NCBI GenBank assembly: GCA_021778515.1 | Contig: JAJYCJ010000001.1 | Span: 4,396 to 68,395, forward strand | Direction of reading: 5' to 3' | Length of the DNA stretch: 64,000 nt | From: Acidobacteriota bacterium | Lineage (GTDB): Bacteria; Acidobacteriota; UBA4820; DSQY01 | In this document: piece by piece, positions 20,247 to 35,421 of the stretch | Numbering within the stretch: position 1 is the first letter of the stretch | How the letters are laid out: the number at the start of each line of letters is the position of its first letter | Notes under the pieces: model-generated | Seen by the model: only the letters and a program-made list of their open reading frames with translations | The model's database searches: none | What the model was told of the DNA's origin: nothing | Position numbers and translations under genes: made by a program

Positions 20247-20870
20247 GTTGCCCCCTTCTCGAGATGAGACTGTTACCGGATGCCCTCGCCGCCTCCCCGC
20301 CCCCGTGAGGTGGCCTAAAGTTCAGCATAGTCCAAGGAAGGGACGCATTCAACACGGCTGGGGCCGCTTCGGCCTCTCCTTATCCCCAAATTCCGCGATT
20401 GAAATACGGGTGGCTTCGGCCAGGTTTCGGACACACGGGGGAAAGGCATTGTCTCTTGGACGGGGAGGGTCATGGGCTTCCTCCTGCGATTCGCAGGCCA
20501 AGCCTGACGAATCGTCGTGTTGCCCTCCGGGGCCCCGCCCCACGGGCAAAGCCCGTTGGGGCCCCACCCCACCCTTGGGGCTTCCTCGCCCGGCCTGGGC
20601 CGGGTTCGGAGGCCACCCAAATCCCTTCGCGGGTGAAGACCGTCTTTCACGGGAACTACCCTCCATCTGCCTTTCGGAGCCACTCCCATGTCCAATCGCG
20701 GGATTTGGGTTTTTGTTGCGGGCGCCCCGACAGAAACCGCAGCCGGCCATCCGAACCTTTCAGCGCACGGCACCGGTCGAGAGACGCGGGCGTGGTGGCC
20801 CGCTGGGCCATTTGGCTCATTCGGGAGGCACCGCGGCGGATGGGCCTGTTCCACTGCCCTTCCGAGGGGG

Positions 20871-20879
20871 TGCTATAAT
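20871..20879 (+). promoter_or_regulatory. Extended -10 promoter element TGCTATAAT upstream of the proline dehydrogenase gene
   Basis: Perfect TGnTATAAT about 45 nt upstream of the ATG; RBS GGAGGAG follows. Confidence 0.4.
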
Positions 20880-20923
20880 GCCGCCTCGCGGGCATCCGTC
20901 CGCGGTTCCTGGAGGAGCAGCTC

Positions 20924-21832
20924 ATGTCCATGCTTGCCGTGAGAAGGTCCGTGGCCAACGCCATCCCTGGCCGGCTGGTTCGGGTGTTCGCCTCCCCTTA
21001 CGTATCGGGGGATTCGATGGAAAAGGGACTGCGCGCGGCCGACGAGCTTCACCAAATGAAGGGGATCGAATCCACGATGGACGTGTTGGGCGAGGCCGAA
21101 AAAACCGAGGCCAAGGTCCGTCACGCCGTCGATCTCTACCTGAAGACGCTGGACGCCCTGAAGGAGAGGCCCCACTGCACCATTTCGGTCAAGCCGGGCC
21201 ATTTCGGGTACTACGTGAACTCCGATCTTTGCCGGCGCAACATCGAGGAGATGGCCGCCGCATGCCAGAAGGCGGGCCGTGGCCTGACCATCGACATGGA
21301 GGACACGGACCTCACCGACTTCACCCTCCAGCTCTACAGGGAGCTCAAGCCCAAGTACCCCGTTCTGGGGACGGTCCTCCAGGCCCGCCTCCACCGCACC
21401 CTCGACGACATCGACAGCCTCGATGGCATGCAGGCCCATGTCCGCGCCTGCATCGGCATCTACAATGTCCCCGAACCGCTGGCGACCCAGAACCGTCGGG
21501 AGATGAAAGAAAATCTCCTCCGGATGATCCGCAAGCTGTTCGAGCGCGGCCACTACGTCTGCATCGCCACCCACGACGTGGAGTACATCGGCAAGGCCAG
21601 GGCCATCATCGCCGAGATGAAAATCCCCAGGGAGCGGTACGAATTTCAGATGCTCCTCGGCGTTCCGCGGGAAAAGATCCAGCGCGAGCTCGTGGCCGCC
21701 GGAGAAAAGGTGCGCCTCTACCTTCCCTTCGCCGTGGACTGGGACGACGCCATCGCCTACCTCAGGCGGCGCATGGTGGAAAGCCCGTCCATGACCGCCC
21801 TGGTCCTGAAGAATATCATCAAGCGGGGCTGA
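20924..21832 (+). CDS. Proline dehydrogenase (monofunctional PutA-like PRODH domain)
   Basis: 302 aa TIM-barrel PRODH family pattern (TISVKPGHFG...LTIDMEDTDLTD...CIATHD...YEFQMLLGV); RBS GGAGGAG before ATG; extended -10 TGCTATAAT at 20871-20879. Confidence 0.85.
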   Translation: MSMLAVRRSVANAIPGRLVRVFASPYVSGDSMEKGLRAADELHQMKGIESTMDVLGEAEKTEAKVRHAVDLYLKTLDALKERPHCTISVKPGHFGYYVNSDLCRRNIEEMAAACQKAGRGLTIDMEDTDLTDFTLQLYRELKPKYPVLGTVLQARLHRTLDDIDSLDGMQAHVRACIGIYNVPEPLATQNRREMKENLLRMIRKLFERGHYVCIATHDVEYIGKARAIIAEMKIPRERYEFQMLLGVPREKIQRELVAAGEKVRLYLPFAVDWDDAIAYLRRRMVESPSMTALVLKNIIKRG

Positions 21833-21922
21833 GGGGATCCCCACCGGCGAGGCCTCGGCGGCCTCTCCCGCGGCCGTGAGCGCCCCCCTCGTCCTCATGG
21901 TGGAGGGCGCTTACGCCGACAC

Positions 21923-21950
21923 TTGACGTTTGAGCAGCAAGGACTTATCT
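21923..21950 (+). promoter_or_regulatory. Sigma-70-like promoter candidate (TTGACG-16 nt-TTATCT) in an AT-rich island
   Basis: -35 TTGACG at 21923-21928, -10 TTATCT at 21945-21950; the only clearly AT-rich stretch in this intergenic region. Confidence 0.4.
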
Positions 21951-22113
21951 TACTTAAAGATGAATCGGTGGTAACGGACCTCGGGGAAGGTGGGCTTTGC
22001 CCGGCGGACCCCGTGGAGAGTGTACAGACGAGCGGGACGGGTGAGATTCAGTGCGGAAAAGCCCGTATCGTTCGCTGACCCTCCCTTACATCCATTTCCC
22101 CTCTTCACTCTAA

Positions 22114-22140
22114 GGGCCCAATCGGGCCCGCTTCTTTTGG
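22114..22140 (+). terminator. Intrinsic terminator / attenuator hairpin inside the leader upstream of the Xaa-Pro aminopeptidase gene
   Basis: GGGCCC-aatc-GGGCCC followed by GCTTCTTTTGG; lies about 165 nt downstream of a sigma-70-like promoter and about 105 nt upstream of the start codon. Confidence 0.5.
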
Positions 22141-22244
22141 CGGTAGGCGGTTCCGGCGTGATAGACTTCGGTCGTGCGGGGCCAGCATCCGCACACCCCA
22201 TGGGCACGGGCGCACGAAGCGCCCTCCACGAAAGGAGTCCAGCC

Positions 22245-23447
22245 ATGGCCCACGACCTCGCTCCCAAAGAGATCATCGCCGAGAAGCTCGACCAGGCGGC
22301 GCGGAAGATTAAGGAGCAAGCCATCGACCTGTGGGTGACCTTCGTCCAGGAGACGAGCGCCGGGGTGGAGCGAGTCTTCTCCTATGTTTCTCCCGGCCAC
22401 CTGACCTGGGAGAGCGTGATCGCCGTAACCCCCGGGGGGGAACGGTTCGTCATCTGCGGGAAGTTCGACCAGCAGGACTTCGAGGAGTCAGGCCTTTTCA
22501 CCGAGGTCTACACCTACGTGGAGGATTTCAAGGAGCCCTTTGGGCGCCTCCTCCAGCGGGTGAAGCCCGGCAGGGTCGCCCTCAACTTCTCGTTCAACGA
22601 CCCCACGGCGGACGGCATCAGCCACGGCAAGTTCGTCTTTCTTCAGGGGCTCCTCAAGGAAATGGTTCCAACCGCGCAGGTGGTCTCGGCCGAGGCGGTG
22701 GTCCTCTCGCTCATCTCCAGCAAGAGCCCCATCGAGCGCTCCGCCATCCAGGAGGGGGTGGATCTCACCGTCAAGATCTTCGGAGAGATCGACGCCTTCC
22801 TCAGGCCGGGCCTGACGGAGAAAGAGATCTACGGCTTCATCCAGGAGCGCATCCTATCCTACGGCGTCACCCCGAGCTTCCAGACCCTCGTCTTCACGGG
22901 CGACCGAGGGGCCGGATCGGGCCACGGCAGCGCGACCGAGAACCCGGTGCAGCCGGGCGATCTGGTGCACGTCGATATGGGCGTCTTCGTGCGAGGGTAC
23001 GCCTCTGACATGCAGCGCACCTGGTATGTGCTCAAGCCAGGTGAGGACCGCGCACCCGAGCCGGCCCAGAAGGGCTTCGACACCATCGTCCTCTCCATCG
23101 AGGCCTCGGGCAGGGCCCTCAAGCCGGGAGCCAAGGGCATCGAACTGGACACCATCGCCCGCAAGGTGGTGACCGACGCCGGCTATCCCGAATATCCCCA
23201 CGCCCTCGGCCACCAGATCGGCCGGCACGTCCACGACGGTGGAGCGCTCCTGGGCCCCGCCTGGGCCCGCTACCGGAACACCCCCTTCCTGGTTCTGGAG
23301 GCGGGGCAGATCTTCACCCTGGAACCCTCGCTGACCGTTCCGGGCTTTGGAGCGGTAGGTATCGAGGAGGATGCGATCGTCACGCGGGATGGTGCGCGTT
23401 ACATGGCACCGCCCCAGCGCAAGCTCTGGATGGTGAGAGGGAAGTAG
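22245..23447 (+). CDS. M24 family Xaa-Pro aminopeptidase / prolidase
   Basis: 400 aa; creatinase N-domain plus M24 pita-bread domain with metal ligands (HVDMGV...DMQRT..., HALGHQIGRHVHD, LEPSLTVPGFGAVGIEED); RBS AAAGGAG before ATG 22245. Confidence 0.85.
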   Translation: MAHDLAPKEIIAEKLDQAARKIKEQAIDLWVTFVQETSAGVERVFSYVSPGHLTWESVIAVTPGGERFVICGKFDQQDFEESGLFTEVYTYVEDFKEPFGRLLQRVKPGRVALNFSFNDPTADGISHGKFVFLQGLLKEMVPTAQVVSAEAVVLSLISSKSPIERSAIQEGVDLTVKIFGEIDAFLRPGLTEKEIYGFIQERILSYGVTPSFQTLVFTGDRGAGSGHGSATENPVQPGDLVHVDMGVFVRGYASDMQRTWYVLKPGEDRAPEPAQKGFDTIVLSIEASGRALKPGAKGIELDTIARKVVTDAGYPEYPHALGHQIGRHVHDGGALLGPAWARYRNTPFLVLEAGQIFTLEPSLTVPGFGAVGIEEDAIVTRDGARYMAPPQRKLWMVRGK

Positions 23448-23504
23448 CGTTTTGCCGGACTGGAGCGGTCCTGCAGCCGCCCCGTTCCCGAGGAGGAATC
23501 CGCC

Positions 23505-24041
23505 ATGAGGCCGAGAGCCGTCCTTCTGCTGGTCGCCGCCCTTTCCTCGCTGCTCTTGGCGGCCTGCGGCCCCAGCAAGGCGGAGGTGGCCGCGCGCGAG
23601 GCCGCCCGAAAGGCGGCGGACCTGGCCGCCTTTCAGGCGCGCGTCAAGGCCATGGAGGAGGCGTCCAAGCCCCCCGTCCTCACGGCCCGAGACACCGTGG
23701 TCAAAGGCCCCAAGGGGCTTCAATTCGTGGACATGAAGATGGGGACGGGCAGGGAGGCTGCGGACGGGTGTACCGTCACGGTCGATTTCATCGGGTGGGC
23801 GGACGGCGTCAAGATCGACAGCTCATCGGACAGGGGCAAGCCCTTCTCCTTCGTGCTCGGCTCCGGCGCCGTCATTCCGGGTTGGAACGTCGGCATCCAG
23901 GGCATGCGCGAGGGGGGCACCCGCCTCCTGATCATCCCGCCCGGGTTGGCCTACGGGAAGCAGGGCAAACCGGGTTTCGTGGGGCCCGACAAGACCCTCT
24001 GGTACAGGATCGAACTGCTGAAGGTCTACCCACCGCTGTGA
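23505..24041 (+). CDS. FKBP-type peptidyl-prolyl cis-trans isomerase, lipoprotein
   Basis: Signal peptide with lipobox (LLLAAC); FKBP domain (GLQFVDMKMGTGREAADGCTVTVDFIGWADGVKIDSS...FVLGSGAVIPGWNVGIQGMREGGTRLLIIPPGLAYG). Confidence 0.85.
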   Translation: MRPRAVLLLVAALSSLLLAACGPSKAEVAAREAARKAADLAAFQARVKAMEEASKPPVLTARDTVVKGPKGLQFVDMKMGTGREAADGCTVTVDFIGWADGVKIDSSSDRGKPFSFVLGSGAVIPGWNVGIQGMREGGTRLLIIPPGLAYGKQGKPGFVGPDKTLWYRIELLKVYPPL

Positions 24042-24167
24042 GCCCGCCTGCAATAGGGCATCGGCGGGCGGCGTTTTTCCGGGTGTGTTGAATCGAGGCG
24101 ACCGACCAGTCCGGGCGGCGAGCAATGGCGCCAGCGCCGGGCGGGATGCCTTCTCTGGGAGGGTCTC

Positions 24168-24608
24168 ATGGATACCGTCAAGCGGATCTTGGAAGAAAAG
24201 GGCACGGAGGTTTTCTCCGTCTCTCCGGAGACCACGGTCATGGACGCCGCCCGCCTGATGTCGGAGCACCGCATCGGGGCCGTGTTGGTCATGGCTGCGG
24301 GCCACGTCCGCGGGATCTTCAGCGAGAGGGACCTCCTGCAGCGGGTCCTGTTGAGGGGAAGCAATTCCGAGTCCCTGCCCGTGAGCGAGGTGATGTCCAC
24401 GGACATGGTGTACGTGACGCCCGACACGCCGGTTCGCGAGGCCATGGCCGTCATGACCGAGCGCCGCTGCCGTCACCTTCCCGTGATGGAGGAGGGGCGC
24501 CTCTGCGGCATGGTCTCCATCGGGGACTGCACCCGCTGGGTCTCACACGATCAGGATTTCACCATCCGCCACCTGACGGACTACATCGCCAACAAGTATC
24601 CGGCGTAG
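24168..24608 (+). CDS. CBS domain pair protein
   Basis: 146 aa; two CBS motifs (VFSVSPETTVMDAARLMSEHRIGAVLV; VTPDTPVREAMAVMTERRCRHLPV). Confidence 0.8.
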   Translation: MDTVKRILEEKGTEVFSVSPETTVMDAARLMSEHRIGAVLVMAAGHVRGIFSERDLLQRVLLRGSNSESLPVSEVMSTDMVYVTPDTPVREAMAVMTERRCRHLPVMEEGRLCGMVSIGDCTRWVSHDQDFTIRHLTDYIANKYPA

Positions 24609-34074: not shown

Positions 34075-35421
34075 TTACCCGGGCGCGTGCGATGGAGGCT
34101 GGGCTTCTCCCTGTTGGTTCAGGGCCAGTCCCACCAGGAAGAAGATGAGGGTCGCCACCTCGGCGTCCCCCACGTTGAATTCGAAGAAACCTCCCACGAG
34201 GATCGCTGTCAGGGCCGCCATGGCCCCATATCGCAAGACGGAGTCTGGCTGGGCAGCAATCCTGCGGAAAGCCGCTACCACGAAGGCGAAAAAGAGTATC
34301 AGCCCCAGAAGCCCCGACTGAATAGCGACCATAAGGTATATGTTGTGGGCGTGGCTCACGGTCTGAAACCCGATGTGGGTGGGGTAATGGATGAAGTGGG
34401 CATAGGGTGCCTTGTAGGGGCCGGCGGTCTCCTTGTAAATGCCGGGGCCCCATCCGATGAGGGGTTTGTCCTGCCACATGTGGAAGCCCGAAATCCACAA
34501 GTAGATACGTTCGGCAACGCTAGGGTTCCTCAGATTCCAGGCGTCGGCCAGGCGCTCTCGGACCCCAGGAGGCCCGGCCAGGAGCGTCACGACTCCTCCT
34601 ACCAACACCGCCACCACCACCGCCAGCACCGCCTTTTTCCCCTTCTTCCAGAATAGAACAGCCAAGGCCGGCAAGGCCGCCACAAAGTAGGTGCGGGCCA
34701 GGCTGAAAAAGAGACCCAGCGTCGAGAACCCGGCGGCCAGCCACCAAAACCAGGAGATCCGGAGAGAGGGCAAGAGCGAACCCAAGATGGATATTCCCCT
34801 CCGCGCCGGGGGAACCGGGTCCTTCAAGCCCGAAGACGACCTGATCGGATCCTTCCACGCGGCTTCTCCTCCGGCTTCCACCGCTTCGGTTCCGTTTCCG
34901 TAAAGGGCCCTGGCTCCGAAGAGGCAGAGGCAGACCGTGATGACCCCGGCGTAAGTCAAATGGGTGCTGAAGTAGCCGTAGGCATTGACTTGGCCGAAGG
35001 GGACGCGCTGGGAAAGGAGATGATGGTGAAAGTCGGTTCCCAGGAAGAATTCCGCAGCGGCCATGGGCACCGTCAGGAGGGCACCGGCGGCCAGGAAATC
35101 GATGTAGCGGCGGAAGTGTCTGCGCACCGCCCACGGCAGAGAGGCCCCCACGAAAAGGGCCGACCAGGACCAGTGGTTGAGAACACCCACGAGGGCCTCG
35201 TGGCGCAGGGGGCTGAAGAGCGCCGAGAGAACGTTGGTCGCCAGGTAGGCGATCAAAAGCCACTCAGGCGTGGTCGGCCGCCACCGGCCGCGGACCATCC
35301 GCCAGAGAAAGAAGAGGCTTAGCCCTCCCTGCCCCGCGTTGATGGCCGCCAGACTTAGGCAGGAGGCGGCTCCGAGAAAATAGAAAAAGAAGAGCTCAAG
35401 GGCTATCACGAAAGGCCTCAT
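34075..35421 (-). CDS. O-antigen ligase / Wzy_C family polytopic membrane protein
   Basis: 448 aa, about 11 TM helices, a periplasmic loop with conserved H/R (WGPGIYKE..HAHNIYLMVAIQSG) typical of the O-antigen ligase domain. Confidence 0.8.
   Translation of the reverse strand: MRPFVIALELFFFYFLGAASCLSLAAINAGQGGLSLFFLWRMVRGRWRPTTPEWLLIAYLATNVLSALFSPLRHEALVGVLNHWSWSALFVGASLPWAVRRHFRRYIDFLAAGALLTVPMAAAEFFLGTDFHHHLLSQRVPFGQVNAYGYFSTHLTYAGVITVCLCLFGARALYGNGTEAVEAGGEAAWKDPIRSSSGLKDPVPPARRGISILGSLLPSLRISWFWWLAAGFSTLGLFFSLARTYFVAALPALAVLFWKKGKKAVLAVVVAVLVGGVVTLLAGPPGVRERLADAWNLRNPSVAERIYLWISGFHMWQDKPLIGWGPGIYKETAGPYKAPYAHFIHYPTHIGFQTVSHAHNIYLMVAIQSGLLGLILFFAFVVAAFRRIAAQPDSVLRYGAMAALTAILVGGFFEFNVGDAEVATLIFFLVGLALNQQGEAQPPSHAPG

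Follow-up and report, generated by a model that had tools for sequence, protein, structure and literature searches.

A candidate stand-alone small RNA gene with an anti-Shine-Dalgarno-like tract between Pro_dh and pepP in one genus of uncultured Acidobacteriota

The region between Pro_dh, a proline dehydrogenase gene, and pepP, which encodes an M24 Xaa-Pro-type aminopeptidase, was analyzed in a 64,000-nucleotide stretch of contig JAJYCJ010000001.1 from an Acidobacteriota bacterium (hereafter the window). Both genes and the intervening element at 21923–22138 are read from the same strand (Table 1). An earlier inspection of the letters alone (hereafter the sequence-only reading) had proposed that this region specifies either an independent small RNA (sRNA) of about 180 nt or a riboswitch or leader attenuator of pepP. 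The signals on which that proposal drew are present. TTGACG at 21923–21928 and TTATCT at 21945–21950, separated by 16 nt, were described as a sigma-70-like promoter, and the same −10 element reads equally well as TATCTT with a 17-nt spacer, the choice of our scanner, with the canonical A2 and T6. The promoter lies in a locally AT-rich island, as had been noted, the GC content being 0.53 at 21900–21999 compared with about 0.65 in the flanks. The stem given as an example, GGGCTTTGCCC, occurs at 21994–22004, and the inverted repeat GGGCCC-AATC-GGGCCC at 22114–22129 is followed by GCTTCTTTTG. The pepP ATG stands about 105 nt beyond this terminator, with its ribosome-binding site AAGGAG at 22232–22237. 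The start of the predicted RNA was placed about 7 nt past the −10 element and its end within the U-run; within 20500–23800, the only terminator-like site is that at 22114.

Table 1 Features of the Pro_dh–pepP region in window coordinates.
Feature	Coordinates	Strand	Basis or remarks
Pro_dh (proline dehydrogenase, 302 aa), upstream gene	20924–21832	+	Pfam PF01619, E=1e-28
−35 hexamer TTGACG (relatives: TTGACC)	21923–21928	+	TTGAC invariant in the window, L002, L003, L038 and L113
−10 hexamer TATCTT, 17-nt spacer	21946–21951	+	Invariant in 5/5 sequences covering the site
Predicted non-coding transcript, ~180 nt	21958–22138	+	Inferred from promoter and terminator
Predicted hairpin 1, CGGGG...CCCCG around GGGC-UUU-GCCC	21983–22012	+	RNAalifold consensus; in single-sequence folds of 4/4 homologues
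Shine-Dalgarno-like octamer GUGGAGAG, invariant	22013–22020	+	Predicted partner CUCUUCAC, 22101–22108
Predicted hairpin 2, imperfect 15-bp stem, variable apical part	22027–22076	+	RNAalifold
C/U-rich tract GACCCUCCCUUACAUCCAUUUCCCCUCUUCACUCUAA	22077–22113	+	Proposed anti-Shine-Dalgarno/anti-start-codon seed; 35/36 invariant
Intrinsic terminator GGGCCC-AAUC-GGGCCC + GCUUCUUUU	22114–22138	+	Stem and U-run invariant among homologues
pepP extended −10 TGATAGACT	22159–22167	+	20 nt past the U-run; outside the RNA, start of the next transcription unit
pepP 5' untranslated region: hairpins GTGCGG..CCGCAC and GGGCGC-acgaa-GCGCCC, ribosome-binding site AAGGAG	22168–22244	+	93–94% identity among the window, L002 and L003
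pepP (M24 Xaa-Pro-type aminopeptidase, 400 aa)	22245–23447	+	Pfam PF00557, E=1e-39

We favor, with about even confidence, the reading that 21923–22138 is a stand-alone, genus-restricted gene for a trans-acting sRNA with a seed resembling an anti-Shine-Dalgarno (anti-SD) sequence. At the level of sequence, the element has what is generally expected of a base-pairing sRNA gene, namely its own promoter and terminator in intergenic DNA and no coding character. Since patterns in the single sequence do not go beyond chance, the case rests on the comparison with relatives. The comparative set consisted of four distinct homologues, those of the window and of loci L002, L003, and L038, and the neutral benchmarks in their four-way alignment were the third codon positions of Pro_dh and the 90-nt spacer between the Pro_dh stop codon and the promoter. 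Invariant columns make up 175 of 302 (58%) of the former and 45 of 90 (50%) of the latter; pairwise divergence at the neutral sites is 15–35%, and 42–50% of the neutral columns vary.

Against these benchmarks, the conservation of the element is selective. The promoter is invariant in 23 of 29 columns (79%), the first 57 nt of the RNA are close to neutral (61%), and the middle of the RNA reaches 73%. In the C/U-rich tract, 35 of the 36 columns counted over 22078–22113 are invariant (97%), with P=8e-8 against the rate at third codon positions and P=5e-10 against that of the spacer. The terminator stem is unchanged in all of its 12 columns; changes are confined to the loop, which reads AATC, GATC, or GACC, and the homologues diverge immediately past the U-run. 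The sequence-only reading had named a lack of both conservation and structure in orthologous loci as grounds for giving up its proposal; the region is conserved in four homologues of one genus, although its 5' third is near neutral.

The element is independent of pepP. Of 21 acidobacterial pepP loci, 17 have a TGnTAnAnT motif, as in the extended −10 sequence that follows the terminator, at 44–86 nt before the ATG (background, 0.037 per 200 nt), and most of these 17 loci bear no sign of the RNA. L001 and the window are identical from the pepP −10 onward and unrelated upstream of it. Since pepP has its own conserved −10 element and, in L038, an element resembling a miniature inverted-repeat transposable element (MITE) follows the terminator directly, a riboswitch or attenuator of pepP is unsupported; of the two proposals in the sequence-only reading, only the independent sRNA of about 180 nt fits the evidence.

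A coding signal is absent. Substitutions in the RNA are distributed over the codon positions as 9/15/9, as compared with 23/18/101 in pepP, and thus show no 3-periodicity. Since there is neither codon periodicity nor a conserved start of an open reading frame (ORF), the region is regarded as non-coding. The individual coding readings that were tried concerned an in-frame upstream extension of pepP from a GTG at 21990, an ORF without a conserved start; a 4-codon mini-ORF at 21961 (AUG-N3-stop), whose AUG is lost in L002; and an antisense ORF of 15 aa. All were rejected, on the combined grounds of a non-conserved start, no codon periodicity, or inconsistent length. In PepP homologues, the alignment begins at residue 1.

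The Rfam comparison covered the entire window, with the gathering threshold as the cutoff, and, at E<=10, slices of 261–501 nt taken from the window, L038, and L111. No family reached the gathering threshold, in agreement with the sequence-only reading, which had found no fit by eye among the riboswitch classes it considered (TPP, glycine, SAM, FMN, cobalamin, ZTP, and fluoride), and no credible match appeared among the slices at E<=10. A match to a SAM riboswitch (18 bits), mostly upstream of the promoter, was dismissed as noise, as were matches to snoRNA, miRNA, and lncRNA models. The sole resemblance is to suhB/mmgR (RF00519), with 14.5 bits for the window and 14.9 bits for L038 against a gathering threshold of 41, and this sub-threshold match spans exactly the C/U-rich tract and the terminator.

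Homologues were sought from several directions. A PepP-based synteny search of GTDB genomes returned 35 loci, among which only L002 and L003 carry the RNA (PepP 93–95% identical, element at 88–89% nucleotide identity); the distant relatives in this search are labelled Thermoanaerobaculia or Thermoanaerobaculaceae. A metagenome scan with the 18-mer TCCATTTCCCCTCTTCAC gave 75 loci, with L038 as the sole homologue. Most of the other loci (L045, L070, L101, L103, and about 40 more) are antisense matches to a conserved transporter-like coding motif that translates as GEEGKWMG (...GDISPxGEEGKWMGYFNAAFF...); they lie on unrelated contigs of lower GC content, and the similarity stops at the edges of the pattern. 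The matches outside L038 are a coincidence of the pattern, and the coding motif may be that of an MFS (major facilitator superfamily) transporter.

Pro_dh directly precedes the RNA in all four homologues. Three further loci, L114–L116, are conspecific with the window; over the RNA region they are 99.8–100% identical to it and add no variation, and the contig of L113 stops at the 5' end of the RNA with the same promoter visible. Neither BLAST nor a covariance model detected a homologue in L111 and L112 (Pro_dh 77% identity) or in L004–L021 (PepP 59–68% identity), and the element was not found with Pro_dh genes at 66–77% identity. When the covariance model R1, built from the four homologues, was run against the window and 25 loci, it matched its four source sequences alone, so that no paralogues or distant homologues were detected. 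Two scans of viral contigs gave chance matches or none. As far as these searches reach, the element is known only from one genus of uncultured Acidobacteriota, represented by Thermoanaerobaculia-like metagenome-assembled genomes.

L111 (4030–4368) and L112 (4030–4362) present an arrangement of their own, in which Pro_dh is followed by a TTGACC promoter, a conserved leader of some 300 nt, and then a gene whose long product (1299 aa in L111, where it runs off the end of the locus) has a signal-peptide-like N-terminus. This leader has no match in Rfam, and its alignment to the RNA shows the promoters only, with no significant similarity beyond them.

The consensus fold from RNAalifold consists, from 5' to 3', of hairpin 1, an 8-bp long-range helix, hairpin 2, a C/U-rich stretch of about 24 unpaired nt, and the terminator. 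In hairpin 1, four pairs are variable, and all the changes pass through G-U wobbles. The main stem of hairpin 2 shows two wobble-compatible changes and two breaks, and its apical part two more wobble-compatible changes and one break. The long-range helix, between the octamer GUGGAGAG and CUCUUCAC, has 8 of 8 pairs intact with none variable, and is neither supported nor refuted. The search for covariation that had been suggested succeeded in finding relatives, four homologues in all, but revealed no compensatory double changes among them. Variable columns account for 13% of the paired positions and, with the C/U tract left aside, for 43% of the unpaired ones (Fisher P=7e-5), a difference to be read with the structure being derived from the same sequences. 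The hairpins and the terminator are plausible parts of an overall fold that is tentative.

In the mechanism that we propose, the sigma-70-type promoter TTGACG-17-TATCTT would start a transcript near 21958, which would fold into two GC-rich hairpins and stop at the intrinsic terminator. The functional core would be the invariant C/U-rich tract just 5' of the terminator. This tract contains the motifs CCCUCCC and UUUCCCCUCUUC and two CAU triplets, which together form the complement of an SD sequence and a start codon; its reverse complement, GAGGGGAAAUGGAUG, has the order of an SD sequence, a spacer, and AUG. The RNA might then base-pair in trans to the ribosome-binding region of a single mRNA or of several, and the pairing would block translation, alter mRNA stability, or both. 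The neighboring genes use strong SD sequences (AAGGAG, GGAGGAG, and GGGAGGG). The internal octamer GUGGAGAG may mask one portion of the seed, CUCUUCAC. Pro_dh lacks a terminator of its own, so the Pro_dh mRNA probably ends at the same terminator too, and with a shared 3' end the sRNA could also arise by processing of the Pro_dh 3' untranslated region (UTR).

Candidate targets were sought by duplex energies over the whole window and in six neighboring ribosome-binding regions. The best of these neighboring regions is that of a CBS-domain gene (24140–24170, ATG at 24168). Its SD sequence, GGGAGGGUC, is a perfect 9-nt complement of 22077–22085 of the sRNA, where it pairs with GACCCUCCC; a second block also pairs, and the site is conserved in L001–L003. 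We regard the CBS-domain gene as a candidate target that is statistically unconvincing. A site at 34371–34410 was rejected as a target, as it lies inside overlapping long ORFs on both strands, away from a gene start.

Several observations weigh against a trans-acting sRNA. Scans of 60 kb found 4 promoter sites where about 3.6 are expected from shuffled sequences and 32 terminator sites where about 27 are expected, and the fold z-score is modest (−2.25 on the plus strand, −1.87 on the minus strand). The comparison includes only four close sequences, with 83–91% identity over the RNA. The changes in predicted pairs, 8 compatible with wobbles and 3 breaks, are not distinguishable from chance; the minimum-free-energy folds of the single sequences differ in global topology from one homologue to another, and in most of these folds parts of the C/U tract are base-paired to the G-rich 5' half, so that the seed is only presumed to be accessible. 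Moreover, the 36 invariant nt exceed the length of a typical seed, and so long a tract could instead mean a protein-binding site or one long, specific partner. In the target search, 9-mer complements in the 64-kb window occurred at the chance rate with none outstanding, and the duplex with the CBS-domain region, at −30.5 kcal/mol, falls only at about the 1st–2nd percentile of the background.

These points leave room for other explanations. One is that the region is merely a long 3' UTR and terminator of Pro_dh, serving the formation or stability of the mRNA 3' end, with no independent role and with a promoter-like site that is fortuitous or minor. In its favor, the stretch from the Pro_dh stop codon (21832) to 22114 contains no terminator-like site, Pro_dh precedes the element in every case, and promoter-like matches are at the chance level. 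However, the −35 and −10 elements are invariant in five sequences, while the preceding spacer is half invariant and, in L002, holds a 155-nt MITE. A stability element would also leave the invariant, unstructured pyrimidine tract of 36 nt unexplained, and Pro_dh genes at 66–77% identity do without the element. We consider this explanation unlikely.

Also unlikely, in our view, is that the conservation reflects a DNA-level element, such as a transcription-factor or UP-type site, or nothing functional at all, too little time having passed for divergence. The tract does lie 50–85 bp upstream of the pepP −10 element, and one genus was sampled. Its sequence is nevertheless unchanged in L038, in spite of the MITE between it and the downstream DNA, and L001 keeps the pepP promoter region with unrelated DNA of 48% GC upstream. 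Nor can a short divergence time account for the 35 invariant columns of 36, since neutral sites in the same alignment have diverged.

A protein-binding RNA, whether a decoy of RNA polymerase like 6S RNA, a sponge of the CsrB type, or a ligand of a protein that recognizes pyrimidine tracts, seems to us improbable. With about 180 nt, the predicted transcript is close to 6S RNA in length; its 5' half is G-rich and its 3' half C/U-rich (GC skew +0.3, then −0.2), and these complementary halves make rod-like folds possible. The invariant tract, as noted above, exceeds a usual seed in length, and three GGA motifs are conserved. On the other hand, the searches up to E=10 with the 261–501-nt queries gave no match to 6S RNA, and the 5' strand of the would-be closing stem varies at about 40% of its columns opposite an invariant 3' strand, so that no closing stem is maintained. 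The window element has about five GGA motifs, of which three are conserved in all four homologues, whereas Csr/Rsm sponges have many, and the restriction to one genus is unlike a housekeeping RNA.

Instead of a generic seed, the tract could also be a dedicated mimic of the 3' end of 16S rRNA, or a nearly complete anti-ribosome-binding site, which would titrate one specific partner encoded elsewhere in the genome by way of an unusually long duplex or bind a pyrimidine-tract protein. We give this possibility little weight. If it were true, the RNA would be the founding member of an uncharacterized class of riboregulators in Acidobacteriota.

Least probable, and in our judgment very doubtful, is a cis-acting leader of pepP in which the terminator at 22114 would respond to a ligand, a tRNA, or a protein: promoter, structured RNA, terminator, and gene do follow one another on one strand, and the flanks share a proline theme (Pro_dh, the M24 Xaa-Pro-type peptidase, and an FKBP prolyl isomerase), but the extended −10 element of pepP, conserved in the 17 of 21 loci, sits 3' of the terminator; L004, L005, and L007 have Pro_dh directly before pepP with the RNA absent between them; the RNA is still conserved in L038 despite the MITE inserted right after its terminator; the 5' part, the place of an aptamer and thus expected to be the best conserved, varies as much as neutral sites do, and the gradient of conservation, with the tract next to the terminator invariant, is opposite to that of a riboswitch; Rfam offers no match; no GGGCC/GGCCC complement for an antiterminator was seen by inspection within 21957–22113; and the AUG-N3-stop mini-ORF lacks its AUG in L002. 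For annotation, the element should not be entered as a pepP riboswitch, since pepP is equipped with a conserved promoter and leader hairpin of its own.

The trans-acting sRNA that we favor has its closest known counterparts among the sRNAs of alpha-proteobacteria. The conserved regulatory element of the rhizobial AbcR, MmgR, and NfeR1 consists of CU-rich anti-SD motifs that are left unpaired (PMC7143759). Like MmgR (alpha-r8), AbcR1/2 (alpha-r15), and NfeR1 (alpha-r14), the element is a stand-alone intergenic gene with a sigma-70-type promoter and a Rho-independent terminator, and, as in those sRNAs, the C/U-rich anti-SD motif is conserved while the stems vary; their regulation is thought to proceed via pairing with ribosome-binding sites (PMC7143759). 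The element shares with RF00519 the design of a C/U-rich anti-SD motif joined to a Rho-independent terminator but, with its score below the gathering threshold, is no member of that family. It also differs from the alpha-proteobacterial sRNAs in phylum, in length (about 180 nt compared with 77–120 nt), and in having one invariant tract of 36 nt instead of short motifs repeated in hairpin loops.

In Firmicutes, RsaE/RoxS uses unpaired C-rich motifs to target the G-rich SD sequences of several mRNAs and ends in a 3' terminator hairpin. The present RNA gave no match to it in Rfam, differs in architecture and lineage, and has a mixed C/U motif together with anti-AUG triplets. It also resembles sRNAs of the 3'-UTR type that have their own promoter, such as MicL and DapZ (PMC4102768, PMC9438474), in adjoining an upstream gene on the same strand, in a terminator that is probably shared, and in a putative seed just 5' of that terminator; unlike in this class, its promoter is intergenic, 90 nt past the stop codon, and not inside the coding sequence. 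With 6S RNA (RF00013), it has in common the length, the layout of a stand-alone gene from promoter to terminator, and the complementary base composition of the two halves, whereas the lack of a covariance-model match, the lack of a conserved closing stem, and the genus restriction set it apart.

The surroundings of the element bear traces of mobile DNA. The window contains a MITE-like element of 325 nt at 20385–20709 with 17-nt terminal inverted repeats (CCCAAATTCCGCGATTG / CAATCGCGGGATTTGGG), and L002 and L003 have no copy at this site. Elements with identical termini are found elsewhere, in L038 immediately past the sRNA terminator (minus strand, from about 272 downward) and in L002 immediately past the Pro_dh stop codon (2436–2592). 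The MITE family appears to be mobile within the genus. L114–L116 are 99–100% identical to the window over 20378–23332 and lose all similarity upstream of 20378, at the MITE edge, where they have genes for a VTT-domain protein and an aconitase C-terminal domain instead of DUF1015; a strain-level rearrangement or a chimeric assembly at the repeat would account for the breakpoint. In L001, which has the closest PepP (97% identical), unrelated DNA of 48% GC lies directly 5' of the pepP −10 element, and the contig ends there (L001 1–195), which suggests a foreign or insertion-sequence insertion or a chimeric contig end.

The pepP loci L001–L020 share an arrangement of an extended −10 element followed by a GC-rich leader hairpin, whose sequence is lineage-specific while its presence is constant, a conserved ribosome-binding site, and ATGG. 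This leader may be a conserved stabilizing or regulatory element. Pro_dh, too, is preceded by a perfect extended −10 sequence, TGCTATAAT, at 20871–20879, 45 nt before its ATG. The two sites together suggest that this organism commonly uses TG-extended −10 promoters. Farther downstream of pepP, Pfam identifies genes for an FKBP prolyl isomerase, a CBS-domain protein, and RtcB.

The RNA belongs to no curated family, and it would be a plausible, ordinary kind of regulator. Its wider importance is modest, because it is confined to one genus and has a well-known design. The literature that we searched contained no regulatory RNA from Thermoanaerobaculia and no experimentally characterized sRNA from Acidobacteriota. 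If real, the element would be a concrete candidate for metatranscriptome analysis and would suggest that SD-targeting riboregulators have evolved independently in this phylum.

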